From a virus: a stretch of 64,000 nt of DNA. Below, piece after piece: positions 34,408-64,000 of this stretch. Within the stretch, counting starts at the first letter, position 1. The number at the start of each line of letters is the position of its first letter. The position numbers were made by a program, and so were the translations under genes. Under the pieces are notes generated by a model, which saw nothing but the letters and a program-made list of their open reading frames with translations, ran no database searches and had not been told where the DNA came from. Location: IMG/VR virus record IMGVR_UViG_3300032229_000533, positions 32,001 to 96,000 of that record; one strand, given 5' to 3'.

Positions 34408-35355
34408 TTATAAAAAAATATTAAAATCGTCAAGAAAAGAAACGATTGTTTTAAATTGATTCTCAGGTAGACAATTATTAATAAACCATCTTTTTGATTC
34501 CTGAATCATATCATTATATTGGTTAGTCATACTAAACTCTAAAATCTCATTAACTTTTTCATCAATTATTGAATCAACGTTTTCTTTAGATAAAATTTTT
34601 TGTACCAAATCATCATTTATAAATTCAACATAATGAACATCCTTTATAATTGGTTCATAGGTTTTAGAATTAAGAGGTTGTCTCAAGTTTAAAACCCCGA
34701 GGCCAAATAATTCCAAGTCTCTATAACAAATGTTTGCAGCGCCATTTAAACTTAGCCCAAATCTGTGTTTAGAAACTTCATCATAATAGTCTTTCTTTTG
34801 TCTAAAATGTTCAGGGTTACCTTTTGTTCTAATATTAAAAAACGAATTATTTGATAATGAATTTAAAACATTTTCCCTAATACCGTGATTCAACCCGTTA
34901 AAATATGCTTTGTTGTCTTTAATTGATTGAGATTCAGTTGAAATTATGTATTCAATGTCTTTCCAATTTTCAACGTAATATACTGAAGGTTGTACAATAA
35001 TTTTATCTTTATACTCATCAATGATTGAATCGGTTAAATTAGAAACGCAAGAAAATTTAACAACATTAAAATTATTAGTTACAGAATATTTTAATATTTC
35101 AGGTGCATAGTCATACCAACTATGTACAAAAAATTTATCAGTAGTTTGATTGTAAATTACAAGGTTATACCAATTAAAAATATTACCTGTTTGATTGTTT
35201 AATGTTTTACCAAATCTGTGAGATAAATCACGTAAAGAAACATACTCAAATTGGATATTTGTTATTTCAGATAATTGTTTATGAAAATATTTGTAAAATT
35301 CACTAACATACCAATTATTATATCCTTGTTCGTACGATATGATTAATTTGTCCAT
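34408..35355 (-). CDS. Putative GT-B glycosyltransferase
   Basis: YYDEVSKHRFGLSLNGAANICYRDLELFGLGVLNL resembles the GT-B C-terminal motif of CgeB/GT47-like proteins. It lies inside the glycan cluster. Confidence 0.55.
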   Translation of the reverse strand: MDKLIISYEQGYNNWYVSEFYKYFHKQLSEITNIQFEYVSLRDLSHRFGKTLNNQTGNIFNWYNLVIYNQTTDKFFVHSWYDYAPEILKYSVTNNFNVVKFSCVSNLTDSIIDEYKDKIIVQPSVYYVENWKDIEYIISTESQSIKDNKAYFNGLNHGIRENVLNSLSNNSFFNIRTKGNPEHFRQKKDYYDEVSKHRFGLSLNGAANICYRDLELFGLGVLNLRQPLNSKTYEPIIKDVHYVEFINDDLVQKILSKENVDSIIDEKVNEILEFSMTNQYNDMIQESKRWFINNCLPENQFKTIVSFLDDFNIFL

Positions 35356-36215
35356 TATTTTTCAGTTGCGTGTACCGTACCTGCTCTAGGTCCTGTTTTA
35401 TATCCATTAGGTGTAAAAACTTTACTCCATATAGGATGAGAATACGAAATATCTAAATCTTTAAATCCTGCGGTTAATGCTGATACTCCAATTTCAAAAC
35501 CTTCTGCCCAAGTACCAAAAGTATAATCTTTGTTATTTAAATAATCATAAAACCATTTCCATTGTTCTACCATTTTATTTAATTTACCGTTATTGTTATA
35601 AAAGATTATAAGATATTCTGAAGGAAATGATGCTTCACCCCACTTGTGGTTCTCACCTTCAACAACTTGATTGATATTTGTATCCACCAAATCATAGTTA
35701 AATAATTTATGCCATGCAAGTGTACACAAATCATAATCTAATGAGTCGGTGTGTGGATTTTTCTTACAAAATGTGTTGTATTTTGATATCAAATTTTTAA
35801 ACTTGAGTCCTGTTCTTGGTGCAAAATAATCATAACCATTTTCAAAATTTGTTTTAACAAAGTTTAAAACTTGTTCTTTATCCCACCAGTCAAAAGAATT
35901 ATCACAATCCGTAAAAATAATGATTGCGTCATCAATATTTTTTACATGGTCTAAACACAAATATCTCATGTTAAAATTAAAATCACGAGCACCTTTATTT
36001 GGTCCAATAGGTAACGAAACTTTTAAATCTTCACGTTTAATTTCGTTATATTTGATTCTATCTGAATTACCATATTTTTCTTCAATTAAATGTCTACAAT
36101 CAGTAGTTATGTACATTTCAATATCAGTTAAAGATAAAACATCTTCAATCATTCGTAGTGTGTAATCTTTAGTGTAATTTTCACCAAAGCTTAAAGTTGT
36201 TATTATTATTTTCAT
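35355..36215 (-). CDS. Putative GT-A glycosyltransferase
   Basis: Rossmann-like N-terminus MKIIITTLSFGENY, FNFNMRY and a DxD motif FTDCD. Confidence 0.55.
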   Translation of the reverse strand: MKIIITTLSFGENYTKDYTLRMIEDVLSLTDIEMYITTDCRHLIEEKYGNSDRIKYNEIKREDLKVSLPIGPNKGARDFNFNMRYLCLDHVKNIDDAIIIFTDCDNSFDWWDKEQVLNFVKTNFENGYDYFAPRTGLKFKNLISKYNTFCKKNPHTDSLDYDLCTLAWHKLFNYDLVDTNINQVVEGENHKWGEASFPSEYLIIFYNNNGKLNKMVEQWKWFYDYLNNKDYTFGTWAEGFEIGVSALTAGFKDLDISYSHPIWSKVFTPNGYKTGPRAGTVHATEK

Positions 36216-37099
36216 ATTACAATATTTGTTAGTTTAACTTTTTTTATGTTTATAGGATACCAATTAAATAAACTTGTATAACTCATATCTCCACAATAGT
36301 ATATGTTTTTACATTTACTTAATATTATTAATTCCCCAACAACATACAATGCTTCATCAATAGTTTGTCCAAACCTAACAAATCCAGTTGATATATAATT
36401 TGGGCTATGATTTTCTAAATCACGATACATTTTAATATCTAAATTAGTTTCTGAAAATACTTTTTTCACAAAACTAGAATTTGAACATATAAAATATTTT
36501 TTGTTTGGGTTTAAAGTTTCAACTAAACGGTTTTTAAAATTCAAAATTCGTTCAGAGTTGAGGGGAGGTAACGAGCGATAATATATAGATTCAAAATCTT
36601 CTTCAAAATTATCGGAAATAAATTTATTTACATTATTTACAATATCTTTATTAAAGACATCAAAATCTTTTGCTCTGTCGTCATTATCGTTAAATGTAAA
36701 ATCAATAAATGGTATGTTTAAATTTTTAACCTCATCATAGTTACTTGTTGGCACATACACATCAAAAATTCCGTTAGTGTCATTGAATACGTCATTATTC
36801 CTACCTGAATACAATCTCTTATATTCAATATCACCGTATGTTGAAAACCCATTTACGGATACAAATAAATTATCTTTATTTAAAATTTTAAATTCATCAA
36901 AAAACTCATTGAAAAAATCAATATTTAATACTTCCTCTAAAGTTTTAACATTGTACTTATCATTTATAAGTAAAATGAATTGAAAATTTGTGTATTGATT
37001 TTTTAAAAAATCAACACAATTAACAATATCAAACACACTTAAAAATGTGTCTCCCCATCCATTTTCAAAACTGAATTTAAATAAGATTTTATTATTCAT
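36212..37099 (-). CDS. NodZ/O-fucosyltransferase-like glycosyltransferase
   Basis: N-terminal NGWGDTF, SIYYRS and ELIILSKCKNIY...SLF, a GT-B fucosyltransferase-type layout. Confidence 0.55.
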   Translation of the reverse strand: MNNKILFKFSFENGWGDTFLSVFDIVNCVDFLKNQYTNFQFILLINDKYNVKTLEEVLNIDFFNEFFDEFKILNKDNLFVSVNGFSTYGDIEYKRLYSGRNNDVFNDTNGIFDVYVPTSNYDEVKNLNIPFIDFTFNDNDDRAKDFDVFNKDIVNNVNKFISDNFEEDFESIYYRSLPPLNSERILNFKNRLVETLNPNKKYFICSNSSFVKKVFSETNLDIKMYRDLENHSPNYISTGFVRFGQTIDEALYVVGELIILSKCKNIYYCGDMSYTSLFNWYPINIKKVKLTNIVI

Positions 37100-37650
37100 T
37101 AATTATTTTTTTTCTTGAATGCACAGTAGTAATAATAGTGAGTACCCATATCAATTGGGATTTTTAATTCTTTACCGTTAAGATTAATCATTTCTAACAT
37201 TGGATAATGTTCTGCCATAATGGCGTCATCCAAGTCTGGTTGTAAGTGAATTTCATATTTATTACCAAAAACTTCATCTTGAGGCAAATAATATGGAACA
37301 ACAACGATTAGTTCTCTACATTTGTCTTTTAACTTATTTAAAAGGTTCTTAGCATCTTCTCTTGATAAGTGTTCAAGAATATCACCCATAATAATAATGT
37401 CATAATATTCAAACTCAAAATCTAATATGTTAACGTTGAATACGTTATCGTACATTTCGGTTAATTTATATTCCTCAATATAAGGTTCCCAAACTTCAAC
37501 CGCATCAAATTTTTTGAAGTAATCACCTAATAGTTTAATGTAGAATCCGTGACCACAACCAATGTCTAATATTGAACATGTTGGTTCAAAGTTTTCGGTT
37601 AAGTATTGTTTGACATCTGGGCCTAAATAACCCCAATTTCCTGGCATCAT
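37099..37650 (-). CDS. Class I SAM-dependent methyltransferase
   Basis: ILDIGCGHG, DAVEVWEPY and YDIIIMGDILEH. Confidence 0.85.
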   Translation of the reverse strand: MMPGNWGYLGPDVKQYLTENFEPTCSILDIGCGHGFYIKLLGDYFKKFDAVEVWEPYIEEYKLTEMYDNVFNVNILDFEFEYYDIIIMGDILEHLSREDAKNLLNKLKDKCRELIVVVPYYLPQDEVFGNKYEIHLQPDLDDAIMAEHYPMLEMINLNGKELKIPIDMGTHYYYYCAFKKKNN

Positions 37651-37654
37651 AGTT

Positions 37655-38524
37655 TTAATTTATAAATTTTTTTAGTTTATGTTTTATATTTTCATCTGAA
37701 TTTAAAATGTTATTAAGTATATCTTTAGAATTAACATTAGCTTCTAAAAATTTACCATGTCTAACAATCTCAATATAATCAATTAATAGAAAATCTGTAG
37801 ATAATGGTTTTTCATCTACATGATATGTGATTGGCGGATAGTGGTAACAGAAATTATTGAACCCATAATCAAAAAAGTTTTCTTTGTTTTCGTAAAAAGA
37901 AAAATTAAAAAACTCACTTAATTGTCTATTTTCACCTTTCTTGTTTAAGATATTGGTATTATCTAGTTGATGTAAAGTAAGTGATGGGTTGTGGGTTAAT
38001 AATTCTATTAGAGAAGATTTTTTCCAAACACATGGTTGTACTGAATACATATGTCGTGCAGTCACATCAAATTTATAAAAACATCCATCAGGAAACCCAT
38101 ATTCCGATAATGTTATATTTGGTTTTTCCCAATTAACCACAAAATTTTCAATGTGTTTTTGTGTACCCAAGGCTAAATAATCACCATTAATTTTATCTAA
38201 AATATTAATAATGTTATCAAATCTATTTTTATTTATTGGTGATTTAATTAGATAATCATCACACAAGAATAATATATAATCTTCAGGTATCTGATTTAAT
38301 GCGAATAATAAACTATCTCTAAAATGTGAACCATCACCTGAAAAATTAACATTTGAATCAATATAATTTACCCCATCAAATTTTTCATGTTGAGGTATTT
38401 TATTTGAAACAACATTAATTGTCTTGTTTAAATCTTTTGTGTTTTCTATTGTATAAGGCAGTGTTAGATACAATAAGTCAAAATAGTTTTCATTGGTAAA
38501 AACTACAAATGATATGTCTTTCAT
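37655..38524 (-). CDS. Putative GT-A glycosyltransferase
   Basis: SFVVFTNENY, YILFLCDDY (DxD-like) and YSVQPCVWKKSSL. Confidence 0.6.
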   Translation of the reverse strand: MKDISFVVFTNENYFDLLYLTLPYTIENTKDLNKTINVVSNKIPQHEKFDGVNYIDSNVNFSGDGSHFRDSLLFALNQIPEDYILFLCDDYLIKSPINKNRFDNIINILDKINGDYLALGTQKHIENFVVNWEKPNITLSEYGFPDGCFYKFDVTARHMYSVQPCVWKKSSLIELLTHNPSLTLHQLDNTNILNKKGENRQLSEFFNFSFYENKENFFDYGFNNFCYHYPPITYHVDEKPLSTDFLLIDYIEIVRHGKFLEANVNSKDILNNILNSDENIKHKLKKFIN

Positions 38525-38526
38525 AT

Positions 38527-39885
38527 TTATTTTTTATTTTCTAAATAAAAGTTTAAGTCTTCTGGAGTACCTAAACCCCACATATTATTAACTTCGTAAA
38601 CTCTTATTTTTTTATTGTCTTCTACCGCTTGATTGAAAACAGGACATACATAAAATTCATTATTGACTCTAATATTTTTTTGAATCATTTGTTCGGCGTA
38701 TTTTACAAAATCTGAACCATGTTTCCAATAATAAAAACCAACCGTTGCGTTATCTGAAATTGGATTTTTTTCTGCAACTTCACTAACGTATCCATTGTCA
38801 TCTACTTTTGCAAAAGACCATTTAGGGTGAGTCGCTTTAAAAGTTACGATACCACCATCCGCGTCAGTCTCATTCATTTTATACATGAATTCATTTGAAT
38901 CCCATTCAACAAACTGGTCTGAGTTTGCAAAAAACAAAGGCGAGTTATTGTTAATATATTCTTTAGCTAATAATGCAGTACAAGCTGCTCCTTCTGTAAT
39001 ACCATCAACCTCAACAATTTTACAATTTGGGGTTATTAAATTTAAGAGTGTATCTAAATTATATTTTTCACGATGTGATTTTTGGACCACATAAATGTAA
39101 TTTGCGTTTATGTTTAGATTGTCAACCACAACTTGAATCATTGGTTTATTATGAACATCAATAAGAGGTTTTGGAAATGTGTAACCTGCTTGTTGAAATC
39201 TTGAACCCGCACCCGCCATTGGGATTAGTACATTTAAATTATTATCTTCCCATTTTGGTGTCATAATATTGTGTCCTGATTTTATTTCTAATATTTTTTT
39301 TGTTATGTTAATGTAGGTAACCTCAATCGGAGATTTTACTCTAAATACATGTGACTTACTTCTTGACGCAGCTAATAAACCGTAAGGAGAATCCTCAACA
39401 ATTAATGTTTCTTCAGGTAAACACCCTACCATAGATATTGCCTTCCAATAAATTTCAGGATGTGGTTTTGAATTTTTTACATCTTCGTTTGAAAGTATTA
39501 AATCAAAAAACTCAATAATACCCAACTTACTCAAAACAGTTAAAACAGTTTTTCTAATACTATTAGAACATACCGCTAATTTATAACCTTCATTAACCAA
39601 CATAGTCATTGTTGTTACCAAATCAGGGTTATATTTTAAAGTTCTTAACGATTGTAATGTATAGGTTTGTTTATTGTCCCAAATCTCTTTAAATTTTTCT
39701 TTAGGTAAACCTTTTCGTTCATGTAACATATCTAATTTTTGATTGGTTTTTAAACCATCATAAATTGATAAATGTTCATCCCAAGTGATAGAATAATCAC
39801 CTAACGCTTTATTTAAAGATTCATAATGAATTTCTTTAGCGTCAACCAATACACCATCTAAATCAAATATTATTGTTTTAATCAT
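38527..39885 (-). CDS. Bifunctional HAD phosphatase + sugar/alcohol-phosphate nucleotidyltransferase
   Basis: N-domain IIFDLDGVLVD...CSN...KPHP...VEDS. C-domain LIPMAGAGSRF...PKPLI...GAACT...NSDQ...GLGTPEDL. Confidence 0.85.
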   Translation of the reverse strand: MIKTIIFDLDGVLVDAKEIHYESLNKALGDYSITWDEHLSIYDGLKTNQKLDMLHERKGLPKEKFKEIWDNKQTYTLQSLRTLKYNPDLVTTMTMLVNEGYKLAVCSNSIRKTVLTVLSKLGIIEFFDLILSNEDVKNSKPHPEIYWKAISMVGCLPEETLIVEDSPYGLLAASRSKSHVFRVKSPIEVTYINITKKILEIKSGHNIMTPKWEDNNLNVLIPMAGAGSRFQQAGYTFPKPLIDVHNKPMIQVVVDNLNINANYIYVVQKSHREKYNLDTLLNLITPNCKIVEVDGITEGAACTALLAKEYINNNSPLFFANSDQFVEWDSNEFMYKMNETDADGGIVTFKATHPKWSFAKVDDNGYVSEVAEKNPISDNATVGFYYWKHGSDFVKYAEQMIQKNIRVNNEFYVCPVFNQAVEDNKKIRVYEVNNMWGLGTPEDLNFYLENKK

Positions 39886-40312
39886 TATATCTTTTTATAA
39901 AGTCTGAGCATACACCCAAACATTTTGAAATGTCGTCATTATGTATTTCAGGCATAACCGCAATACTTCCAGTTATAGGTTGTTTACCAGGATATACCCA
40001 CATATAATTTTTAGATGTTAATGTTAGTGTATCTTGTTCATGCCAAAAATAATGTAATGAGGTACTTCTAATCCAATTTAAAGATTCAACATTCTTACAA
40101 TGAATCCATAATTTATCAACTCTTTCACCTAACCACTCATCACTAACTTCATATTGTGGTTCATCGTGTCCTAAATAAACTTTACCATCAACCCACCATA
40201 AGTCAACTTCAACATCGTATCCTTCAGCAATAGCTTCCATAATATAATATGGTGAGTTTTCTCTAACCTCATTAGGACCGTTTAAATTTCCTCTATGTGA
40301 AATTAATATCAT
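39878..40312 (-). CDS. GDPD/PI-PLC-like phosphodiesterase
   Basis: ISHRGN...ENS...GYDVEVDLW...LGHD...WIHCKN...GVCSD. Confidence 0.75.
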   Translation of the reverse strand: MILISHRGNLNGPNEVRENSPYYIMEAIAEGYDVEVDLWWVDGKVYLGHDEPQYEVSDEWLGERVDKLWIHCKNVESLNWIRSTSLHYFWHEQDTLTLTSKNYMWVYPGKQPITGSIAVMPEIHNDDISKCLGVCSDFIKRYND

Positions 40313-41577
40313 TAACTCACGGTATTATGTGTTAATTGACCTGTAATTCTATCACACCATCCTTTTGATTCTGAGTGAGGCCAAACCACCCAATGTGAAG
40401 GTAACTCATCAGTTTGAAATTCTCTCCATACCTTACAATATTTGTCAGGGTCTCTCATGAAACCTGCAATTTCATTTTTGTCTGCGTCTTTACGGAACAA
40501 TGTTTTATCGTCTTTACCATGGAATGCAACAACCCAAAAATCATAATCAGTTTCAGGAACTTGAGAATATCCGATATCAATACAATGTTTGAACATCATA
40601 CAAAAACTATCTCTCCATTCTTGTTCTGTTTCAAAATTATATGGGTTAGGAGGATAATTTTTATCTAAAGTATATTTGTCAATTGCTCTTTTTGAAAAGA
40701 GAATACCAGCATATTTTTCATAATCTGTTAAACTTCTAACAGGACCAAAACCATAAGGACCATCATGACCTTCTTGAGTTTCACCATCCATACCAAATAA
40801 TTTTCTATTTGTTAAGTGCGAATGACTATTTTTTTGTCCCCAAGTTTTATCATCATCCCATTGTTTTGTTCTACCTTTACGAGTGTACTCATGATAAACA
40901 ACAGGAATATGTGGATGGAATAAATCATAACCCCAAGTGTAAGCTCTTGCAGCGATTGAAATCTCTTCACCGTGGAAATAATATTCAGGATTGTGTTGAA
41001 CTTCGGTTGAGAATTGACCTAATGTGAAACAGAAGTGAGCAGAATAGAATCTTGCAGTTACAGGTTTTGTCATCTCTTTCCAACCTGGAATTGTTTCAGG
41101 TAAGAAGAACACAGCTCCTTCAGGAATGAATCGGTCAAACACCATTCTCCAAGCATCGGTTGCTCTTCCTGCTGGGTCGTTCTCGGGGTCAAAAGAAGGA
41201 ACGTAGCCCGTAAGTAGAGGCTTTTTATAACCGTCCTTCTGTAACCCCTTTATCATCTTGATAAGGATGTCATCCCAATCCTTAACAAATCTCATGTGAG
41301 AATCAATTTGTAATGTGTACGTTTCACCTTTATAAAGTTGTTGAACTTGGTGTCTTGCCCAACATACACCTTTGGCATCTTGATATGGAATATCTAAGAT
41401 TCTAAATCTTTTGTCATTTTTATATTCATCTAAGTTATCAAATCCGTCTTCAGGACTATATTGTCTAGCAATACCGATAACAAGGTTATTTGGTTTTTTG
41501 GCATTTGCCAACATGTCTTTAATAGTAGGAACCAACTGAGGGTCTCTGTAAGATGCTATTTGAACGAATATTTTCAT
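40312..41577 (-). CDS. GT60-family UDP-GlcNAc:polypeptide alpha-GlcNAc transferase (Gnt1/OGNT-like)
   Basis: IFVQIASYRDP, KGVCWARH, YTLQIDSHMRFVKDWD (DxH), KPLLTGY, FHGEEISIAARAYTWGYDLFHP and HEY, plus a C-terminal domain of about 90 aa. Confidence 0.8.
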   Translation of the reverse strand: MKIFVQIASYRDPQLVPTIKDMLANAKKPNNLVIGIARQYSPEDGFDNLDEYKNDKRFRILDIPYQDAKGVCWARHQVQQLYKGETYTLQIDSHMRFVKDWDDILIKMIKGLQKDGYKKPLLTGYVPSFDPENDPAGRATDAWRMVFDRFIPEGAVFFLPETIPGWKEMTKPVTARFYSAHFCFTLGQFSTEVQHNPEYYFHGEEISIAARAYTWGYDLFHPHIPVVYHEYTRKGRTKQWDDDKTWGQKNSHSHLTNRKLFGMDGETQEGHDGPYGFGPVRSLTDYEKYAGILFSKRAIDKYTLDKNYPPNPYNFETEQEWRDSFCMMFKHCIDIGYSQVPETDYDFWVVAFHGKDDKTLFRKDADKNEIAGFMRDPDKYCKVWREFQTDELPSHWVVWPHSESKGWCDRITGQLTHNTVS

Positions 41578-41605
41578 GTATAATATAATTTATACATAAA
41601 AATAA

Positions 41606-41634
41606 AAAACCCTCCACAAAGGTGAAGGGTTTTC
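41606..41634 (-). terminator. Rho-independent terminator after the LRR stalk gene
   Basis: Minus strand AAAACCCTTCAC-CTTT-GTGGAGGGTTTT followed by TTATTTT. Confidence 0.8.
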
Positions 41635-41654
41635 TAAAATATATTGTTTTGATT

Positions 41655-43130
41655 TTAGAACGCCGCATTTAAAACATTTGCACTGTTTGATAATAATGAT
41701 TGGTTACCTGAGCTTGGTTGGTCACCTGTTGTTTGATTCGAACTATCCCAAGAACTTTTAGGTAAACTTCCTAATAAGAAATCTGTAACAGCATTGTTTA
41801 ATGATGCTTGGGTAAACGCACAATCACTAATATCAATTAGTGTTAATGTTTGTGGTAATGTTGGTAATGAAGACAATACCGTACAACCTCCAGCAGATAA
41901 CAATGTAAGTGTATTTGGTAAGTTTGGTATTGAAGTTATTTGTGTATTTAGATTCATCAATAAATTTTGTAATGATGTTCCTGATAGTTGAGGTAAACTT
42001 GTTAAACTTGTTGTACCATATATTTCTAACGTAACTAAAGTTGAAGGTAATGATGGTAATGACGTTATTGAGGTGTTATAGTTCAACTTCAATGTTGTTA
42101 ACGATGTTGCCGATAATGTCGGTAACGATGGTAAGTTAACAAAACCTGCGTTTAAAGACACCAACGAATCAGGTAATTGACTTATACTTGTAAAATTAGT
42201 TTGTTGTAAAATATTAATATTAGTTACATTAAAAACGCTTGCTGTAATGTCTCCTGAAGTGTTATTAAACGCAGTAACAACCGCATTAGGGTTGTTATTA
42301 ACATTAGGTGAAGTACCACCACTAATTAACCAATTTTGGAAATCTTGTTGTGTAAATCCTGTCCATGTGCTATTTTCTAATTGAATGTATTCAATTGTTG
42401 GTGTAGTACTTGGTGTTGGTGTGTTAGTTGGAGTTATTGATGGTGTGACCGTGTTTGTCGGTGTATTTGTTGGAGTTTGTGTTAAAGTTGGTGTTTGAGT
42501 AGGTGTTGGAGTAGGACAGGTACCATATACTGAAATAGTTGAGCCAGTAATACAACCTATACCACAACTTCCATTTACCAAATAAATTATTCCATTTTCC
42601 ACATAGTATCCCTCTGGATTACCAGTATTTACCCCAAATTGGTCAGACCAAGCTAATGTAGAATTGGACAGGTTTGTTCCATTAACAAATAAAGTCGCTG
42701 TTTGTAAACAAGCGCAGGCCCCATTTGGGTCACCTTCGTCATGGCAAATTCCCGCGAGAACAGTTCTAACAATATTGGTAGGTGTTAGTGTAATTGTTGG
42801 AGTTGTAGTAACAGTTGGTGTAACCGTATTTGTTGGAGTTGTAGTAACAGTTGGTGTTACTGTATTAGTAGGTGTTATACTTGGTGTTGGGGTTGGGGCT
42901 TGAGTTCTTGTTGGAGTTGGAGTTAATGGGTATACTCCGTCATTAACTAATACGATACTTGACTCAAAAATTTGAGCAACGTCATAAGTTCCGTCAATTA
43001 ACCAAATATTTTTAGTTTGATTTGGTAATAGATTTACTTGATATTCCCACATGGAATCGTCACATCTTCTGTAATTGAAGTTAATCGCTGTTGTACCAGT
43101 ATTTGTCAAAGTATATTTACTACACGCCAT
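41655..43130 (-). CDS. Mucin-like Thr-Pro stalk protein with Cys-bracketed domain and C-terminal bacterial-type LRRs
   Basis: A 76-aa N-domain, a TP stalk, a GICHD...ACAC...GTC domain, a second TP stalk, then LxxLPxLPxxLxxL repeats. Confidence 0.8.
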   Translation of the reverse strand: MACSKYTLTNTGTTAINFNYRRCDDSMWEYQVNLLPNQTKNIWLIDGTYDVAQIFESSIVLVNDGVYPLTPTPTRTQAPTPTPSITPTNTVTPTVTTTPTNTVTPTVTTTPTITLTPTNIVRTVLAGICHDEGDPNGACACLQTATLFVNGTNLSNSTLAWSDQFGVNTGNPEGYYVENGIIYLVNGSCGIGCITGSTISVYGTCPTPTPTQTPTLTQTPTNTPTNTVTPSITPTNTPTPSTTPTIEYIQLENSTWTGFTQQDFQNWLISGGTSPNVNNNPNAVVTAFNNTSGDITASVFNVTNINILQQTNFTSISQLPDSLVSLNAGFVNLPSLPTLSATSLTTLKLNYNTSITSLPSLPSTLVTLEIYGTTSLTSLPQLSGTSLQNLLMNLNTQITSIPNLPNTLTLLSAGGCTVLSSLPTLPQTLTLIDISDCAFTQASLNNAVTDFLLGSLPKSSWDSSNQTTGDQPSSGNQSLLSNSANVLNAAF

Positions 43131-43161
43131 AATTTTATTTTATATATAAATATAAAGAAAT

Positions 43162-43193
43162 AAAAAAACCCTCCACGAATGTGAAAGGGTTTC
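43162..43193 (-). terminator. Rho-independent terminator, paralogous to 41606..41634
   Basis: Minus strand AAACCCTTTCAC-ATTC-GTGGAGGGTTT followed by TTTTATTT. Confidence 0.75.
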
Positions 43194-43229
43194 TAAAATA
43201 TATTGGTATTGTTTTTTTTTTATTAAAAA

Positions 43230-43871
43230 TTATAGTGTTGGGGTTGGTGTTGGAGTTGGAGTGCCACTTGGTGTTTGAGTTTGAGTATTAGTTGGTGTTT
43301 GAGTATTAGTTGGTGTTATACTTGGTGTTGGAGTTGAAGTTGCACTTGAGGTTGGTGTTTGAGTATTAGTTGGTGTTTGAGTATTAGTTGGTGTTTGAGT
43401 TTGAGTATTAGTTGGTGTTTGAGTTGGAGTCTCACTTGGTGTTTGAGTTTGAGTATTAGTTGGTGTTTGAGTTTGAGTATTAGTCGGTGTTTGAGTCGGT
43501 GTTTGAGTTGCCGTAACACTTGGTGTTGGAGTATTAGTTGGTGTTTGAGTTTGAGTCTGAGTTGGTGTTTGAGTTTGAGTCTGAGTTGGTGTTTGAGTTG
43601 CCGTAACACTTGGTGTTGGAGTCTGAGTTGGGGTCTGAGTTGGAGTTCTTGTCGGAGTTGGAGTTAATGGGTATACTCCACTATCAAATAATACAATACT
43701 TGACTCAAAAATTTGAGCTGTATCATAAGTTCCGTCAATTAACCAAATATTTTTAGTTTGATTTGGGTCAAGGTTTACTTGATATTCCCACATAGAGTCA
43801 TCGCATCTTCTATAGTTGAAGTTAATCGCGGTTGTACCCGTATTTGTTAAAGTATATTTACTACAAGCCAT
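43230..43871 (-). CDS. Mucin-like Thr-Pro-Gln stalk protein with no C-terminal domain
   Basis: 213 aa. The first 76 aa are 71/76 identical to 41655..43130, and the rest is ([10 protein letters not shown])n up to the stop. Confidence 0.8.
43233..43660. repeat. Low-complexity coding repeats (TPTNTQTQ / TPTQTQTQ units)
   Basis: Repeated gttggtgtttgagtttgagtatta and gttggtgtttgagtatta units with no unique spacers. Confidence 0.85.
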
Positions 43872-43950
43872 CTTAAATTCTGTTTAAATATAAATACTAC
43901 ATTATTGTTTATTATTTTGAAATTTATTTAAATTTTATAATTTGTGTATA

Positions 43951-46050
43951 TTACACAACAATAATTGGTTCTGCAACAATTGTTCCTCCACTTAAGAATG
44001 TTAACTTTTGACTACTATCCGCAGCATCTAATACAACATTCACAGGTATATTTGTGTAAAGTATTGGATTACCACCAGTTCCACCTGAAAGAGTATAATT
44101 TCCTGTTAAACCAGTAAATGTGAAATTATTGTTTTCACAATTACCTGAATAATCATAATCTCTGAACATTACGCCCTGCACTCCATAAGAAGTTCTATTA
44201 TTAACAAAATAATCAGCAATATCGTTATTAGCAAATTGGTCACCAATTGTATTATCATAGAAATATTCTCCGATAACATTACCTTGGAAACCATTTCCAA
44301 TTACATTACCTCTATAGTTTCCTCCTCCGAATCCAAAATCATTTGCAATTGTATTATTAATAAAGATATTACCAATTTGGTTGTATGAAAAATTGGTTGC
44401 TATTGTATTACTACCAAAGTCATATCCGACTTTATTATATTGGGATGCTCCTGTGATAACATTGTCACTAACATTCCCTTGGAATGAATTATACTGAAAG
44501 TAATAACCTTCAATGTTGTTCACATCACCTATAGTATTCCTATAGAAATTAGAACCTAAACTATTTTCTGTAACAATGTTGTAAAAATTATTTTCGTAAA
44601 AGAGTGGTCCGCCAGTATTTTTTTCAAAGTTACCGTAGAAATTATTGGTATATACATCAGTTCCAAGTACATTATCTCTAAATGTTTGTGTGATGTTGTT
44701 AGTGTTAAATCCGTTACCAATTTGATTGTCATCAAAAGCGCCTGTTATGGTATTATACGCAAAGTTATTACCAATTACGTTTCTTGCAAAACTAAGATGA
44801 ATTACATTTTCAACAAAATTATTACCAATTATATTGTTGATACAATCGCTATCACTGAAAGTAAAAAAGTTGTTTCGGAATCCCCAACCTACTTGATTAA
44901 AATCAAAATCTTGCCCGTCATTGTCTCCTAACATATTATATTGAAAATTACCAACAACAGTATTCCCTTGAAAATCACATTCTATAAAGTTGAATTTGAA
45001 ATCAGGACCAATAGTACTTCTATCAAAATTATTGGTTATAATATTATATTGGAAAAATGGTGCACAGGTGGTGCTGGTCATAAAATTGTCAAACGTGTTA
45101 CCAACAACATTACCTTCAAATGTCATATCTTCATAATTACCACCCTGAAACACGTTGTTAGACAAAATAAAGTCACTATAATTTTGATTGTCACCTAAAT
45201 ATGTGTTGAAGTTTTGATTTGCGTTGAATGTGTAATATTCGGTAAATCCTGTGTAGGATTCTGATTGTACGTTACATTTAAATGGGGACCTTATACCTCC
45301 CATAAGACCTCGTGAATAAAATCTATTACTTGTGGGATAGAAGGTTGTACCTGTTACTGTCATACCCGATACACTTGGAACAGTTAAAATTTCATAATAC
45401 GCAAAACCACCAATAAGGTTAGTGTTTGTTGTTGATATACCTAAAATTTGACCAACACTAAAATCGTTGATAAAATCAGTACCGACTCCGACAACATTAC
45501 CTGAACCATCTATTGACACGGTACCTCCATAATAAGCTTCAGAAAAAAATGCTTGATATCTAATAAACTGAACCGCTCTGAAGTCGTAATCTGCTCGGTT
45601 ATTTTTTTCATCAATTCTTTCGGTAATTCTACCTTTTGCAGGTGAACCTGTTACTTCAGTGGTACTCCAAGTAAAATCATATGATATTTTATCTTTAGGA
45701 TAAAGTGTGGAATATACAGTTGGTGAGAATTCATTTGCTGATATTGCCAACAATAAAATTGGTTCTGTAGTTCCTGTTTTATAATTTCCTGTTGTTATTG
45801 CAACACCCTGATTATCATAATTTGGTTGGTCATAACAAGTTTGGAAATCTGTCATTAAATAATATTGACCAACAATTAAACTACTAGTACTAGACCCTAT
45901 AGTTAATCCTGAATACGTAGATTGAGTATAGTTAATACCTGAAAAGGGGATATGATAAGTCGTACCCGCCTCTTCAACTGGAATTAAAAGGTTATTTGTT
46001 GTATAATCTAATGCGGTTAATTCGCCGATTGTTTTTCCTGTAAGTGCCAT
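43951..46050 (-). CDS. Tail fibre/spike-like protein with Asn-rich beta-solenoid
   Basis: 699 aa. MALTGKTIGELTAL anchor, YYLMTDFQT...KGRITERID...YDFR domain, then many ~11-residue NxIGxxFxxN repeats. Confidence 0.6.
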   Translation of the reverse strand: MALTGKTIGELTALDYTTNNLLIPVEEAGTTYHIPFSGINYTQSTYSGLTIGSSTSSLIVGQYYLMTDFQTCYDQPNYDNQGVAITTGNYKTGTTEPILLLAISANEFSPTVYSTLYPKDKISYDFTWSTTEVTGSPAKGRITERIDEKNNRADYDFRAVQFIRYQAFFSEAYYGGTVSIDGSGNVVGVGTDFINDFSVGQILGISTTNTNLIGGFAYYEILTVPSVSGMTVTGTTFYPTSNRFYSRGLMGGIRSPFKCNVQSESYTGFTEYYTFNANQNFNTYLGDNQNYSDFILSNNVFQGGNYEDMTFEGNVVGNTFDNFMTSTTCAPFFQYNIITNNFDRSTIGPDFKFNFIECDFQGNTVVGNFQYNMLGDNDGQDFDFNQVGWGFRNNFFTFSDSDCINNIIGNNFVENVIHLSFARNVIGNNFAYNTITGAFDDNQIGNGFNTNNITQTFRDNVLGTDVYTNNFYGNFEKNTGGPLFYENNFYNIVTENSLGSNFYRNTIGDVNNIEGYYFQYNSFQGNVSDNVITGASQYNKVGYDFGSNTIATNFSYNQIGNIFINNTIANDFGFGGGNYRGNVIGNGFQGNVIGEYFYDNTIGDQFANNDIADYFVNNRTSYGVQGVMFRDYDYSGNCENNNFTFTGLTGNYTLSGGTGGNPILYTNIPVNVVLDAADSSQKLTFLSGGTIVAEPIIVV

Positions 46051-46075
46051 AGTTTTTTATAATATAAATATGTTT

Positions 46076-49000
46076 TTATAATCCGTATTTTGATTTATTG
46101 GCATTGAAGTTTTGTAATACTTGAGAACCTGTCAGTGCTGAGTTATACATTCTAACAACACCCATTCTACCATTCAACCATTGAGAGAATTGTCCACCAT
46201 TAAATGAACCCAAATATAAAGGTGACGATGTGTTTTTAATACTTGTAACCGAATGAGAAATGCTTCCAATTAAACTACCATTTATGTAAAGGGCTAATGA
46301 ATTACTTGCAACGTTAGTCCATACACCAACAACTTGATACCAAGTGTTAATACTTAAAGTAGATGATGGAGTTGTAGTTGATGTCGAGCCATTACCTATT
46401 TCCATAAATGTACCACCATTTGCTATAGTCCTTAAACCATAACCCCAATCCGCAGAGTTACCACCATCAGTTTTTGCAATTAAAATTCTACTCGCCCCTG
46501 TAATTACAGAATGATTAACCCAAAACTCAATAGTCCAATCCCCAGTTCCTGGTTCTAACAAAATATTGTCGGCAACACTGACTTGAGAAGATGTACCATT
46601 AAATGAGAAATATGGTGATGTAAATGTGATGTTGGACATTGTTCCATTCAAACCATTACCCGATAAATCATTTATTGTGGTACCACTACCTGAATAACTT
46701 GATGAATTACTTGGGTCATAATATAATACAAGATTACTTGATACAGGGGCATTAGGTGTTGAAGTCGGTGTCGGAGTAGTGGTTGTTGTTGGTGTATTAG
46801 TTGGAGTTACTGTGGGGGTAGATGTTGGTGTTGTTGTTGGAGTTGGTGTTACTAATGAGTTTTCAATTGTCATTACAATTGAACTTGAATTTGCCCCTGA
46901 ACCCCATGCCCATGTGTATGTTCCAGGTGTTAGTCCCATACTTGTAATTGTTGCTCCCGTATAAGTTGCAGTTCCACTAATAACTGTATTTGATGTATAT
47001 CCTGAAGGTACTATTATTACACGTCCACTTACACCACCAGAAACAACACCAAATGTTGAACCTGAAGATATTGGGGTTGGAACAACAAGGTTGTTTCCAA
47101 AAGTGGTTGAGTAACCAGTCAACGACGCACCTCCATATCGTTGAACTGACGAGGATGGGCCGATTGCCCAAATACCAGCAAGCGCCTGAAATGCCGACCC
47201 ATTAGTTCCACTACTAGCTAAAGATAATGCGCTTAAATTAAAACTACCTGAACCACTCCATACAACATTAGGTCCTACTTCGGAAACTCTTACTGTAAAG
47301 ATATTAGTTGCCGCTGATGTGGGTGTTGGAGTTGATGTAGTTGTGGTGGTAGGTGTAACCGTTGTAGTGTTGGTTGGCGTTTGTGTTACTGTATTAGTTG
47401 GTGTTTGTGTAACCGTTGGTGTTGGGGTTACCTCAATAAAATTTGGGGATAAGAAATTATACATTTGGTTTATCTCAGAAAAACTTAATTTTCTATCGTA
47501 GAAATATAGATTTGCCAAATACCCAAATGATTGTCCTGCAAGAAGGTTATTACCCCACATTACGTGAATATCTCCACCCGCACCATAAGCAACCGTTCCA
47601 ACCTGCGTTCCGTTAATATAGAAAATACTTGATGTACTATCACCAACAACCGCATATTGAGTCCACACATCTTCAATCGGTGTAACATCGTACCCTGAAT
47701 CTCTAAACACACTATCATAGAACCCTAAATTATCGGTATTTACTTGAACTAAAATTGGTAACTCATTATTTGTTCTTAATAAGGACCTCCAACCTGAAGA
47801 GCTTGGTATAATTCTTGACCAAGTAACATATGTATAACCTGATGTTGGTAATGATGGTCCAGTACCATTAACCTGAACTGACTCAGTACCTGTACTACAA
47901 TCAAAACATTTTACACCATTTAGAGTTGTGAATGTTGCTCCACCCGATAAAGTGTTATCGTATGAACCTGTTAAATCAAAAACTGTTGTACCCGTACCAG
48001 GATAACTATCAGTTTTATTAGCATCTAACTGCATAATAAGACCTGATAATACAATATTAGGTGTTGGTGTTACTGTTGGAGTATTAGTCGGAGTTTCAGT
48101 ATTAGTAGGTGTTACAGTATTAGTTGGCGTCTCTGTATTAGTCGGTGTTGGTGTTACTGTATTAGTTGGCGTCTCTGTATTAGTCGGTGTTGGTGTTACT
48201 GTTGGAGTATTAGTCGGCGTCTCTGTGTTTGTAGGCGTAGGTGTGTTAGTCGGCGTCTCTGTGTTTGTAGGTGTTGGAGTATTAGTTGGGGTTTCGGTTA
48301 CTGTTGGAGTTGGTGTTTCAGTATTAGTTGGCGTCTGAGTTGGTGTTTCTGTGTTGGTTGGTGTTGGCGATGGCATTGGGTCAACAAACATTAAGTACTC
48401 ATCGGTACCAACACTCAAATATTCGTTAATACCAACCAATATTGGGTTTATTAATTGTGTCTCAAATGTTGGTGTCGGTGTTGGCGTTTGGGTTGGGGTT
48501 TCTGTATTAGTTGGGGTAGGAGTTGGTGTTGCATTATAAGTGTACCCTGTTACAAATGCATATGTGTAAGTGGTTCCTGTTTGAGTTACGGTAATTCCAC
48601 TGAAATTAGAAATTTGAGTTGCGTCTAAATAAGCGTCAAATAGTACCGTTTGAGTAAACCCTGTCAATTCTCCAAATGGGATTGTTACTGATACAGGATT
48701 GAGTATTTCGTAAGGTGGTGTTGAAGTTTCTATTTGGTCAACAAATGATACTGTAATTGTCTCATTGAGTACCGTACTGGCAGTTACTCCGTATCCCGCA
48801 TAAATTGAACCAGGAGAGTAATACGATTCAATAGTTAGTATAACAGATGCTGGCGTTTGAGTAGGGGTTTGAGTATTTGTTGGTGTTAATGTTTGCGTTG
48901 GTGTATTAGTTGGAGTTTCAGTTGGAGTTGGTGTATTAGTTGGAGTTTCACTTGGCGTTAATCCAATAGTAACTGAAGGTGTTGGTGTGTTAGTTGGAGT

Positions 49001-49321
49001 TTCGGTGTTAGTTGGGGTTGGAGTATTGGTATTAGTTGTGGTTGGAGTATTTGTATTAGTTGGTGTAATAGTTGGTGTTGGAGTAATAGTTGGCGTTAAA
49101 CTACTTGTCGGAGTTGGAGTTGGTTCAGGAATGGTAAGTGTGTATGTATAATCATAAGTTGGAACGTAACAATCGTAAGTACCGTAATAATAACTTGATA
49201 GATATGGAAATGGAAAAACTTTAGTACCCAAATCAATGGTACCTCCACTTTGCGGATAATATGTTACATAGGTGGTTTGACCACTTAAATTATCACTTAA
49301 AATTCTTACTCCTAATGCCAT
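46076..49321 (-). CDS. Mucin-like multi-stalk protein with two LamG/ConA-like lectin domains; start revised to 49321
   Basis: Four TP-rich tracts (TPTNTETPT units) and two domains starting LIMQLDA / LVLYYDP...SYxGxGT...DLxG with W...V.V and IYxNG motifs. TATTTAT lies 4 nt before ATG 49321. Confidence 0.8.
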   Translation of the reverse strand: MALGVRILSDNLSGQTTYVTYYPQSGGTIDLGTKVFPFPYLSSYYYGTYDCYVPTYDYTYTLTIPEPTPTPTSSLTPTITPTPTITPTNTNTPTTTNTNTPTPTNTETPTNTPTPSVTIGLTPSETPTNTPTPTETPTNTPTQTLTPTNTQTPTQTPASVILTIESYYSPGSIYAGYGVTASTVLNETITVSFVDQIETSTPPYEILNPVSVTIPFGELTGFTQTVLFDAYLDATQISNFSGITVTQTGTTYTYAFVTGYTYNATPTPTPTNTETPTQTPTPTPTFETQLINPILVGINEYLSVGTDEYLMFVDPMPSPTPTNTETPTQTPTNTETPTPTVTETPTNTPTPTNTETPTNTPTPTNTETPTNTPTVTPTPTNTETPTNTVTPTPTNTETPTNTVTPTNTETPTNTPTVTPTPNIVLSGLIMQLDANKTDSYPGTGTTVFDLTGSYDNTLSGGATFTTLNGVKCFDCSTGTESVQVNGTGPSLPTSGYTYVTWSRIIPSSSGWRSLLRTNNELPILVQVNTDNLGFYDSVFRDSGYDVTPIEDVWTQYAVVGDSTSSIFYINGTQVGTVAYGAGGDIHVMWGNNLLAGQSFGYLANLYFYDRKLSFSEINQMYNFLSPNFIEVTPTPTVTQTPTNTVTQTPTNTTTVTPTTTTTSTPTPTSAATNIFTVRVSEVGPNVVWSGSGSFNLSALSLASSGTNGSAFQALAGIWAIGPSSSVQRYGGASLTGYSTTFGNNLVVPTPISSGSTFGVVSGGVSGRVIIVPSGYTSNTVISGTATYTGATITSMGLTPGTYTWAWGSGANSSSIVMTIENSLVTPTPTTTPTSTPTVTPTNTPTTTTTPTPTSTPNAPVSSNLVLYYDPSNSSSYSGSGTTINDLSGNGLNGTMSNITFTSPYFSFNGTSSQVSVADNILLEPGTGDWTIEFWVNHSVITGASRILIAKTDGGNSADWGYGLRTIANGGTFMEIGNGSTSTTTPSSTLSINTWYQVVGVWTNVASNSLALYINGSLIGSISHSVTSIKNTSSPLYLGSFNGGQFSQWLNGRMGVVRMYNSALTGSQVLQNFNANKSKYGL

Positions 49322-49346
49322 CTTTATAAATATTGAATCGTTATTT

Positions 49347-49916
49347 TTAACATAGACCCACATTTAACACCAAAGTACCACTAATCTGTATAAATCTAGA
49401 ACCATTTGATATTGTGAAGTTTGAGTTTATTGGTGGAATTGTTAACGATGAATTACCAAACACGTTATCACCAGGAACTAAAAGTCCAAATGGTTTTGTT
49501 GTGTATATCGTTACATTTGCTGGATTCGCAAACATATTTGCCGCCTCACAAGCGTTTTGATAATAACCACCGCTCCATAAGTTATAATTAAAAATAACGT
49601 TTGGTGTTGTGCTAGGTGTTGGGGTAGGTGTAGGTGTTACAGGTGTTGGGGTAGGTGTAGGTGTTACAGGTGTTGGGGTAGGTGTAGGTGTTATGGTTGG
49701 TGTAGGAGTGTTTGAAGGGCATAATCCAATGAAAACAACATTAAGTGGTGCCCCATATTCTTCAACCAATATGTCTTTGGCACAAAAATAACTTGTTTGC
49801 AAGGGTTCAACAGGGGTTACACCAATAATATCAGTACATCCCGTCCATCTATAATACCCTTCTTGGACATTATTATAATTTGTTATTCTAAAATAATTAC
49901 AATCTGTTGTATACAT
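49347..49916 (-). CDS. Short Thr-Pro stalk protein with Cys-containing N- and C-domains
   Basis: 189 aa. N-domain DCNYFRITNY...YRWTGCTD resembles the [10 protein letters not shown]...YRRCDD domain, followed by TPTPTPV repeats and a C-domain NACEA...GLC. Confidence 0.75.
   Translation of the reverse strand: MYTTDCNYFRITNYNNVQEGYYRWTGCTDIIGVTPVEPLQTSYFCAKDILVEEYGAPLNVVFIGLCPSNTPTPTITPTPTPTPVTPTPTPTPVTPTPTPTPSTTPNVIFNYNLWSGGYYQNACEAANMFANPANVTIYTTKPFGLLVPGDNVFGNSSLTIPPINSNFTISNGSRFIQISGTLVLNVGLC
49614..49693. repeat. Perfect 27-nt tandem repeat x3
   Basis: aggtgttggggtaggtgtaggtgttac occurs twice, followed by a third copy identical over 26 nt. Confidence 0.9.
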
Positions 49917-49921
49917 TTTTA

Positions 49922-51820
49922 TTACTCAATTAATAGATAATACAAATCATTCGCAGGTATTGTTATTCTACAATTAGGACAATCTGGATTTAATAAATTG
50001 TATTTATTTTTTAATATTTTAAAATTGTGTTTTATTTGTGCTGGATTTAATGGTTCAGTATACATTCTAAATGCACTGATATCTCCAATCATACTACCAC
50101 CAAACAATTCTTCTAATCTAATTTGAGTGGTTAATCCTGAATAAATTGTATTGTCTAAATCATGAGTTGTTAAACACTCTGGGTCTTGTTGATATTGAAG
50201 TCCGCTTAAATCAACTGGACATCCACCTGAAAAAGTTAAGTTGTCGTGAAGACCTTGGGTACCACCACCAATTGAAATGTTATATCCAACACCAATTTGT
50301 TTTTCTTTTTCAACATTTAGTAATCTTGGAATAATTTCTTCAAAGTTTTCCGCAACCATGAATAACTTACCATTAACATAGAACTTAAGAGTACCTAATC
50401 TATACTTTTGTTCTTCAGTCCACATGTCATTAAATGTAACAACTTCAGTCGACGCTGGGTCATAAGGTTGTTCGTGTGTAATTGGTGGCTCAATTAATGA
50501 AACACTCCTACCTTCAATTGTTGCAAAATACACATCTTTAACTAACAACCCTAATCCACCCTTATCATAAAGGTCACAAGTGTCTAACCACTCATATCTT
50601 TGGAATACCGCATCAATTTGAGCCCAATGTTCAACATTTTGATATGTCGTACCAGAACAATCATCAAATATTCCTCTTGTTGAACACCATTCGGTTACCG
50701 ATGTTCCTGTAACATAAGTTATTCCTGTCAAACAAGTTCCAGTACTTTCACACCCTCCTGTTATTCTGTATGTTTTAACACACAATCTTGGGCTACCAGT
50801 ATCCCCACTTAATCTTAATGACAACGCGTTTGAAACCTCATCATACAATGGGTCTTTTTCTGGATATTGGGCTTTGGTTGTACAATCACACGCGCATCCA
50901 CAATTACATGTTGTTATTGTTCCTCCTGATGGTTGATAAACTTGAAGGCATTGTGATGATGTATTTGCACTACTTGCACATCCACAAGTGTGCATACAAG
51001 TTAAACCTGAAGTAACTCTTGTATATCCTGTGTCTTGTTTTGGGCTACCATCGGCATAGTGATAAAATTTATTTTCGGCTCTTGCCCCCATGTAAAAGAA
51101 TGTCCCTTTATTTTCAGGGTATCTAACATTTAAACCAACTGAAGTATTACCAGTCCATCTATATTTTAACATGAACTCTGCAGTCCAACCTAAACTAACT
51201 CTTTCAGGAAAAACTTGATAATCATATCCAGCAAGTTTGTAGAATCCTTGATAGAATCCACCATTTAAAGTTGCAACATATCCAATATCTCCACCAGCGT
51301 TTGTATACGATAAATTATAATCGTATGAACCATCATTCCACAATCTATTTTGTGTTGTTGTAAAACCAGTGATAGGATGAAGTTTCATTCTCCTATCATA
51401 CTTATATCTGCTAAATTTATCAGAAATATTTGTGTATAACCCTGTTGTTACTTGAATAGTCTCTCCTGACATGTTCTGTACCAACCCGTTATCAATACCT
51501 GTCAGTCCAACATCACATAAGTTAGTAACTATGGGACAAAAATTTGGGTCAGTATCAGTTGGGTTCCAATAATTTTCAGAAACAATGGTATCACTACTAA
51601 AAACACAAGGTGAAACCTGACATAATGTGGTACCACTACTATTAAAATCAAATCTGAATGGCATTCTATTACCATCATCCTCACCAATCAATAACGGTGA
51701 AAAGATAACTTCTTGGTCATAATCTTTTTCGTCAGAAGCAAGACATAAGTCGGTCACTTCATTAACAGGTTTTAGACCAAATCTTCTAAAATTATATTGA
51801 TTAATATTTTGATATGCCAT
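49922..51820 (-). CDS. Cys-rich LamG-like structural protein
   Basis: 632 aa with GWTAEF, GTFFYMGARAENKF, GTLKFYVNGKL and IGDISAFRMYTEPLNPAQIKHNF (LamG end motif). It also has a CMHTCGC...CNCGCACDC cluster and an upstream late motif. Confidence 0.6.
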   Translation of the reverse strand: MAYQNINQYNFRRFGLKPVNEVTDLCLASDEKDYDQEVIFSPLLIGEDDGNRMPFRFDFNSSGTTLCQVSPCVFSSDTIVSENYWNPTDTDPNFCPIVTNLCDVGLTGIDNGLVQNMSGETIQVTTGLYTNISDKFSRYKYDRRMKLHPITGFTTTQNRLWNDGSYDYNLSYTNAGGDIGYVATLNGGFYQGFYKLAGYDYQVFPERVSLGWTAEFMLKYRWTGNTSVGLNVRYPENKGTFFYMGARAENKFYHYADGSPKQDTGYTRVTSGLTCMHTCGCASSANTSSQCLQVYQPSGGTITTCNCGCACDCTTKAQYPEKDPLYDEVSNALSLRLSGDTGSPRLCVKTYRITGGCESTGTCLTGITYVTGTSVTEWCSTRGIFDDCSGTTYQNVEHWAQIDAVFQRYEWLDTCDLYDKGGLGLLVKDVYFATIEGRSVSLIEPPITHEQPYDPASTEVVTFNDMWTEEQKYRLGTLKFYVNGKLFMVAENFEEIIPRLLNVEKEKQIGVGYNISIGGGTQGLHDNLTFSGGCPVDLSGLQYQQDPECLTTHDLDNTIYSGLTTQIRLEELFGGSMIGDISAFRMYTEPLNPAQIKHNFKILKNKYNLLNPDCPNCRITIPANDLYYLLIE

Positions 51821-61798: not shown

Positions 61799-61803
61799 AA
61801 AAT

Positions 61804-62646: not shown

Positions 62647-62647
62647 T

Positions 62648-63379: not shown

Positions 63380-63380
63380 T

Positions 63381-63998: not shown

Positions 63999-64000
63999 GA

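Follow-up and report, generated by a model that had tools for sequence, protein, structure and literature searches.

A GT60-family glycosyltransferase coupled to Thr-Pro tract proteins: a candidate phage-encoded O-glycosylation system

Introduction

In eukaryotes, the secretory pathway is known to add mucin-type glycans to dedicated Thr-Pro tracts. Characterised members of glycosyltransferase family 60 (GT60) transfer alpha-linked N-acetylglucosamine (GlcNAc), either with Mn2+ to Thr in a peptide rich in Pro and Thr (PMC3769586) or, in the cytoplasmic Gnt1 type, to hydroxyproline of Skp1 (PMC6939170). Here we describe a phage GT60 gene and a neighbouring block of genes encoding Thr-Pro tract proteins, found in a 64,000-nucleotide window (bases 32001-96000) of the 182-kb viral record IMGVR_UViG_3300032229_000533, which is approximately 61% complete. 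Coordinates refer to the window unless given as genome positions.

Virion glycosylation has been reported for mycobacteriophages Che8, Corndog and Myrna (Freeman 2023, as cited in PMC12363180 and PMC12619734). For phage XacN1, the original report describes at least two Schiff-positive virion proteins, suggested by the authors to be phage-made, and names open reading frame (ORF) 334, one of two glycosyltransferases, as the enzyme that may make the virion glycoproteins (PMC5852040). That proposal anticipates part of what a first-pass annotation of the window had thought undescribed in a tailed phage, a GT60 enzyme with mucin-like substrates; we found no paper on a phage GT60 with Thr-Pro substrates in a literature search covering few subscription journals. 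GT60-like proteins are already annotated for uncultured phages and giant viruses in UniProt, so finding such a gene in a phage is no novelty by itself. As proposed here, the system would join GT60 initiation to phage virion glycosylation, both of them already known.

Results

The window encodes a GT60 family member

The 40312-41577 product is a member of the GT60 family, and its membership is solid. It matched PF11397, the only Pfam family recovered, at 226 bits (curated cut-off 21; E 1e-66), and the three motifs from which the first-pass annotation had recognised a GT60-like transferase, IASYRDP, IDSH (with its DxH) and HGEE, were located at residues 7-13, 91-94 and 202-205. A GT-A catalytic domain spans approximately residues 1-300, with the DxH metal motif at 92-94, Glu204/205 and a distal His229. 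Residues D92, H94, E205, H229 and R233 were invariant across 13 diverse homologues with identity down to 40%, and the DxH and catalytic motifs were retained in 119 of 123 homologues.

The structure model of the enzyme (predicted local distance difference test score, pLDDT, 84) found its best solved folds, by two methods, in the polypeptide N-acetylgalactosamine (GalNAc) transferases, with a Foldseek E of 1e-9 and a Z of 20.2 (root-mean-square deviation 3.8, 279 aligned residues; second Z 19.4, next family 16.2). A sequence search of the PDB gave no match for the protein at E 10 and none for the GT60 profile at E 1. The comparison with GT60 and GT27 that had been proposed as a check thus yielded a GT60 sequence assignment and a GT27-like fold, with no sequence match to GT27 members. 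As GT60 has no solved structure in the PDB copy searched, the donor is taken from distant protist members and, by this analogy, is most likely UDP-GlcNAc.

Beyond the catalytic domain, residues 325-415 or thereabouts (40312-40650) form a well-modelled all-beta domain that lies outside the Pfam model and is conserved in most phage and bacterial homologues, possibly as an acceptor- or sugar-binding module. No signal or membrane segment was found in the GT60 protein.

Tract proteins combine a conserved anchor, a Thr-Pro tract and variable tips

Four genes with long Thr-Pro tracts lie upstream of and co-oriented with the GT60 gene, as the first-pass annotation had claimed, and together encode 655 tract residues: 107 in 41655-43130, 151 in 43230-43871, 347 in 46076-49363 and 50 in 49347-49916. 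The third of these genes probably starts at the ATG near 49321 rather than at 49363. The tracts contain 282 Thr and just 2 Lys/Arg, with a Thr:Pro ratio of approximately 2:1, and are written in varied codons. No signal peptide or membrane segment was found in the tract proteins.

The N-terminal module A had 119 homologues in related loci, of which 106 carried a tract, in proteins ranging from 70 to 1557 amino acids (aa) and bearing at least 12 unrelated tip families. It was found solely in viruses, and a PDB sequence search with it returned nothing significant. Module B showed the same modular pattern of tract and exchangeable tips. The first-pass annotation had envisaged lectin or leucine-rich repeat (LRR) tips. 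The 46076 gene has a strong Laminin_G_3/ConA-like match (E 7e-31) at its tip, which also matches a PHROG annotated as a virion structural protein; the LRR_4 match of the 41655-43130 product is weak (E 9e-4) and fell under the family cut-off. In contrast to these exchangeable tips, the 50 homologues of the 189-aa protein are 183-190 aa long and share a single tip family. Within the block, the 699-aa gene is a variable member among relatives, and the 632-aa gene in many relatives carries a long Thr-Pro extension of up to approximately 470 residues.

The baseplate block ends with two further large tract genes (genome 4453-9482), and one of their products has SprB repeats and matches to Hoc-like decoration families. 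The arrangement of anchor, tract and tip is the pattern of exchangeable appendages, although this evidence is indirect. Also outside the window, at genome 1-4419, a coding sequence truncated at the contig end specifies at least 1473 aa, largely Gly-Ser-Ser-Gly-Thr-Ser-type repeats; its product is possibly a second O-glycosylation target or a collagen-like fibre.

GT60 and Thr-Pro tracts co-occur in phages

Among 90 loci from close relatives, 79 had a tract in the 3 kb preceding GT60. The whole region, DNA polymerase included, is syntenic in these relatives, so adjacency among them counts for little, and we rejected it as independent evidence. A first, alignment-based viral scan had returned close relatives only. 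Among 50,697 phage records, GT60 was found in four, XacN1, Xoo-sp13, CM1 and RAS14, with the XacN1 homologue, ORF334, being 46% identical to the window enzyme over its full length. The three GT60-positive cultured phages that were tested each had 19-29 matches to a (Thr-Pro)3 pattern, compared to none in five related phages that lack GT60; one of these five, RsoM2USA, is the closest relative when judged by a tail-tube-type protein. Co-occurrence across related jumbo phages, suggested by the first-pass annotation as a check, was therefore borne out (tract-rich in 3/3 versus 0/5). XacN1 encodes at least 14 tract proteins, whose genes are scattered over the genome, some beside baseplate and tail genes. 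In the reverse test, GT60 was present in 10 of 36 viral contigs, most of them fragments, chosen only for a (Thr-Pro)5 run.

The freshwater phage group is abundant, with more than 7,000 protein clusters when grouped at 90% identity. In a FastTree phylogeny, used descriptively and with no claim on transfer direction, the freshwater phage GT60s fell near Saprospiraceae and the XacN1-like ones near Burkholderiales; this placement in different parts of the tree indicates at least partial independence of the two phage groups.

The coupling extends to bacteria

(Thr-Pro)4 matches were found at 14 of 50 bacterial GT60 loci, compared to at most 1.2 expected, an enrichment of more than tenfold that spans several phyla; 260 of the 409 genome-wide matches in these 50 genomes (64%) fell within the 0.3% of DNA around GT60. 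Some of the GTDB matches are possibly misbinned phage contigs; the isolates Jiulongibacter, Ralstonia, Paraherbaspirillum and Trinickia show the pairing too. The bacterial tract proteins include VgrG spikes of type VI secretion systems, small PqqD-domain proteins and lectin-like proteins. The coupling of GT60 to Thr-Pro tracts is real, cross-domain and goes beyond shared ancestry.

Two bacterial arrangements are recorded here as separate observations. In four Burkholderiales genomes (L188, L166, L143 and L186), GT60 is located in type VI secretion clusters adjoining VgrG with long Thr-Pro tracts, a gene context that suggests glycosylated spike extensions. Elsewhere, tract proteins of 230-380 aa adjoin bacterial GT60 and HtrL fusion genes (L129:7230-7955, L130:6941-7729, L113, L116 and L147), and one of these has a PqqD/RRE domain, which hints at a pathway resembling those of ribosomally synthesised and post-translationally modified peptides (RiPPs) but yielding a glycopeptide.

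A constant partner enzyme and a variable tailoring cassette

Downstream of GT60 lies a gene that the first-pass annotation missed, encoding an HtrL/YibB-like and GT2-like fusion that is a constant phage partner of GT60. Where a locus had enough sequence, the fusion accompanied GT60 in 119 of 121 cases among close relatives and in 15 of 15 among XacN1-like phages; in bacteria it did so at 22 of 51 loci. In full length it occurred in the same four of the 50,697 phage records as GT60 and in no others. Its GT2-like half was recognised from atlas neighbours and a DD motif only, the structure model (pLDDT 36) being left unused. We regard the fusion as a candidate extending enzyme.

The cassette between the two enzymes has seven genes, and these change between strains. 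One encodes an S-adenosylmethionine methyltransferase (37099-37650), another a HAD and nucleotidyltransferase fusion (38527-39885), and the other five match no family. The arrangement looks like a fixed two-step core, made up of GT60 and the HtrL fusion, with variable tailoring, although the order in which the two would act is inferred. A carbamoyltransferase is encoded at genome 152308-153972, unlinked to GT60 here; its homologue lies directly 3' of GT60 in most XacN1-like phages and some Bacteroidota loci, and the enzyme may carbamoylate the glycan.

Table 1. Features of the GT60 region, in window coordinates.
Feature	Position	Strand	Basis and remarks
HtrL/YibB-like + GT2-like fusion, 556 aa	32718..34388	-	HtrL_YibB E 4e-17 and GT2-like half
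Variable tailoring cassette, seven genes	34408..40312	-	content differs between close relatives
GT60-family (PF11397) glycosyltransferase, 421 aa	40312..41577	-	Pfam profile, fold model, motifs
Intrinsic-terminator-like hairpin and T-run	41603..41636	-	between Thr-Pro block and GT60; kept in most close relatives
Thr-Pro protein, 491 aa	41655..43130	-	68-aa module A, tracts 64-118 and 198-249, LRR-like tip; TATTTAT 15 nt upstream
Second similar terminator hairpin	43169..43188	-	between two module-A genes
Thr-Pro protein, 213 aa	43230..43871	-	module A, then 151-aa tract, no tip domain; TATTTAT 18 nt upstream
699-aa protein	43951..46050	-	Asn/Gly-rich repeats, no Thr-Pro tract, no family match; TATTTAT upstream
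Thr-Pro protein, ~1081 aa	46076..49321	-	module B, five tracts (347 aa), C-terminal Laminin_G_3/ConA-like domain
Thr-Pro protein, 189 aa	49347..49916	-	most conserved block member; no TATTTAT of its own
632-aa protein, conserved first gene of block	49922..51820	-	no tract here

The enzyme and its candidate substrates are separate transcription units

The sequence TATTTAT, reported in the first-pass annotation before three of the four tract genes, indeed lies 15, 18 and 4 nt before the 41655, 43230 and 46076 genes and is absent before 49347-49916. Genome-wide, it precedes 50 of 181 ORFs, compared to 8.4 in shuffled upstream regions, and it is also present upstream of the tail tube and sheath genes. 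Since the motif is genome-wide and found also at tail genes, it can be read only as the mark of a probable late class, and we rejected it as a sign of the glycosylation system in particular. The GT60 gene lacks TATTTAT, and the motif precedes GT60 in just 2 of 116 relatives.

A single operon, with no terminator in between and a shared promoter motif, was not found for the GT60 gene and the Thr-Pro block. The hairpin at 41636-41603 and the lack of TATTTAT at GT60 indicate that the enzyme and its candidate substrates are neighbours but separate units. The adjacency itself does not come from an assembly artefact, a source that we rejected because independent contigs, from two public runs, bridge the junction of GT60 and the Thr-Pro block.

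Genome type, probable host and other loci

The phage genome encodes a tail sheath, tail tube, baseplate wedges, gp23-type capsid, T4-type terminase and ribosomal protein S21 (bS21), the gene for the last (PF01165 match, genome 116855-117043) lying between the gp23 capsid and terminase genes on the opposite strand. A -7 promoter element of the Bacteroidota type was observed 19 times upstream of ORFs, compared to 6.2 in shuffles, and a sigma-70 promoter scan gave matches at chance level. The sequence was found in freshwater public runs. These features resemble those of the bS21-encoding freshwater Bacteroidetes myophages, in which the bS21 gene likewise sits in the terminase, portal-region and capsid gene set but on the opposite strand (PMC9723584); the likeness is drawn from gene layout and extends to the enriched promoter element and the freshwater source, whereas the main text of that paper has no mention of glycosylation. 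On the position of bS21, the promoter element and the freshwater runs, the phage is a bS21-type myophage whose host is probably, by inference, a Bacteroidota.

Two further loci in the window deserve mention. A plus-strand cluster at 54602-64000, running past the window end, encodes a GT4, a GT2/GT4 fusion, other glycosyltransferases and sugar enzymes. Among the neck and head-completion genes, a 510-aa gene with TATTTAT upstream (26512-28044) encodes a product whose N-terminal half is Fe/Mn superoxide-dismutase-like, as recognised by eye, and whose remainder is a domain without identity.

Discussion

Family, fold, motifs, gene layout and co-occurrence together point to phage-encoded O-glycosylation of Thr in the tracts, and we consider this reading, with Thr acceptors and a virion location, to be likely. 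We propose that GT60 would act as a soluble cytoplasmic enzyme that, with Mn2+, takes UDP-N-acetylhexosamine (UDP-HexNAc) of the host, most likely UDP-GlcNAc, and starts the glycan at Thr, and at some Ser, within the tracts. The proteins that carry them would be late and modular, each with an N-terminal anchor that is conserved, a tract and a tip that can be exchanged. Further sugars would then be added by the HtrL/GT2-like fusion and the variable cassette between it and GT60 would tailor the glycan, with the enzymes transcribed apart from their substrates. The physical role of the glycosylated tracts would be that of extended, protease-resistant linkers holding lectin-like or other tips off the particle. 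The rigid bottle-brush stalks envisaged in the first-pass annotation are unsupported because XacN1 has no tail fibres by electron microscopy; flexible or short glycosylated linkers are compatible with that observation.

Several findings weigh against this proposal. The absence of tail fibres in XacN1 is one, and its Schiff-positive bands are, in the accessible text of the report, not assigned to genes (PMC5852040). The negative control consists of five cultured phages only, and the GT60-positive cultured phages form one clade. GT60 was lacking from five of the six near-complete viral genomes chosen for (Thr-Pro)5, mostly small ones, and 61 of 80 bacterial GT60 loci had no tract inside 8 kb. 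The first-pass annotation had taken the adjacency of GT60 and its substrates as the mark of a system; coupling in distant genomes upholds the association, but the intervening terminator, which places GT60 and the tract genes in separate transcription units, and the XacN1-like loci, of which 0 of 17 had a Thr-Pro gene in the 3 kb preceding GT60, give adjacency less weight than that annotation had placed on it.

Some of these same findings would fit a different arrangement, in which GT60 and the cassette act on another target: the capsid or tail tube, as in mycobacteriophages, or a small molecule, or a polysaccharide of the host surface. The tracts would then be unmodified linkers, placed where they are through shared ancestry. 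The synteny of the whole region in close relatives down to the DNA polymerase, the terminator between the units and the presence of Thr-Pro runs in GT60-free small phages agree with it, and glycosyltransferase clusters of phages are usually read as host-surface modifiers (PMC7824862). We nevertheless consider it unlikely, since it leaves unexplained why tracts are enriched near GT60 in bacteria of several phyla, how GT60 and tracts are distributed together among cultured jumbo phages and why the enzyme has a polypeptide-transferase fold.

A second alternative concerns the acceptor: a 2-oxoglutarate (2OG)-Fe(II) oxygenase of phage or host would hydroxylate tract Pro, and GT60 would add GlcNAc to the product, as Gnt1 does on Skp1. 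Gnt1 is indeed the cytoplasmic type of GT60 and requires hydroxyproline, and the search for a prolyl hydroxylase proposed in the first-pass annotation did recover a PF13640 oxygenase (genome 161500-162093) adjoining a DUF6445 protein, with three PF13640 proteins in a complete relative. This gene lies, however, approximately 88 kb from GT60, and PF13640 found no match in four complete XacN1-like genomes that carry GT60 and numerous tracts, a result in favour of Thr as the acceptor. The twofold excess of Thr over Pro in the tracts and the Thr/Ser-directed activity of the nearest solved folds likewise make the hydroxyproline route improbable, although a host or divergent hydroxylase might still serve it. 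The oxygenase belongs to a small cluster at genome 160512-163165 that comprises the DUF6445 protein, the oxygenase and a GT17-like gene.

Finally, the tract proteins glycosylated by GT60 might have their role at the host cell during infection, inside it or on its surface, such as excluding superinfecting phages or mediating adhesion, an idea that draws on the lack, in the sources available, of virion proteomics linking a tract protein to the particle, on the fibreless XacN1 virion and on the tips, most of which match no structural family, but to which we give only a slim chance given the absence of signal peptides and membrane segments, the upstream motif common to structural genes, the Hoc-like and virion-protein PHROG matches and the XacN1 tract genes adjoining baseplate and tail genes.

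Returning to Thr glycosylation of virion tracts, a broader reading, to which we give somewhat less than an even chance, is that GT60 and the HtrL/GT2-like fusion constitute a mobile prokaryotic module that builds cytoplasmic mucin-type O-glycans on Thr-Pro tracts of extracellular machines, serving the appendages of at least two distant large-myophage groups and the VgrG spikes of some type VI systems, and giving the phages a variable self-made glycan coat. If true, the module would be a prokaryotic counterpart of eukaryotic mucin initiation, and its soluble phage and bacterial versions would bring mucin-type glycosylation to the prokaryotic cytoplasm and to abundant lake phages. It would also offer a testable identity for the unexplained glycoproteins of cultured phage XacN1 and suggest what the uncharacterised HtrL/YibB family may do. 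For glycoengineering, a soluble polypeptide HexNAc-transferase working in bacteria would be a useful reagent, and the phage enzyme would be an accessible structural model for its family.

Comparison with known systems places the phage enzyme between several of them. With TcOGNT-2 of Trypanosoma cruzi and Gnt2 of Dictyostelium, both Golgi enzymes with Thr acceptors, and with the cytoplasmic Gnt1 of Dictyostelium and Toxoplasma, which acts on Skp1 hydroxyproline, it shares PF11397, matched far above the cut-off, the GT-A fold and the DxH. Its candidate acceptors are Thr/Pro-rich like the TcOGNT peptide substrate. Unlike the protist GT60s, it is phage-encoded and soluble, has the extra C-terminal beta domain and, judged from sequence, would join a cytoplasmic location to mucin-type acceptors. 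The GT27 polypeptide GalNAc-transferases provide the best structural matches to its catalytic domain but differ in showing 12-17% identity and no sequence-level match to the phage protein, in which no membrane anchor and no ricin-type lectin domain were detected.

The XacN1 system is similar in having a GT60 homologue, an HtrL partner nearby and many Thr-Pro proteins. It differs in that its tract genes are scattered rather than adjacent and a carbamoyltransferase follows its GT60; the enzyme family and substrates were left unidentified by the authors in the accessible part of their report (PMC5852040). An outer cage on the XacN1 capsid was considered as well and dropped, one paper describing that capsid as made of the major protein alone. 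Like the mycobacteriophages, as portrayed in the citing papers, the tailed phage described here would encode glycosyltransferases that modify the phage particle itself; in the mycobacteriophages, however, the glycans are on capsid and tail-tube subunits, whereas the candidate targets here are long, dedicated Thr-Pro tracts.

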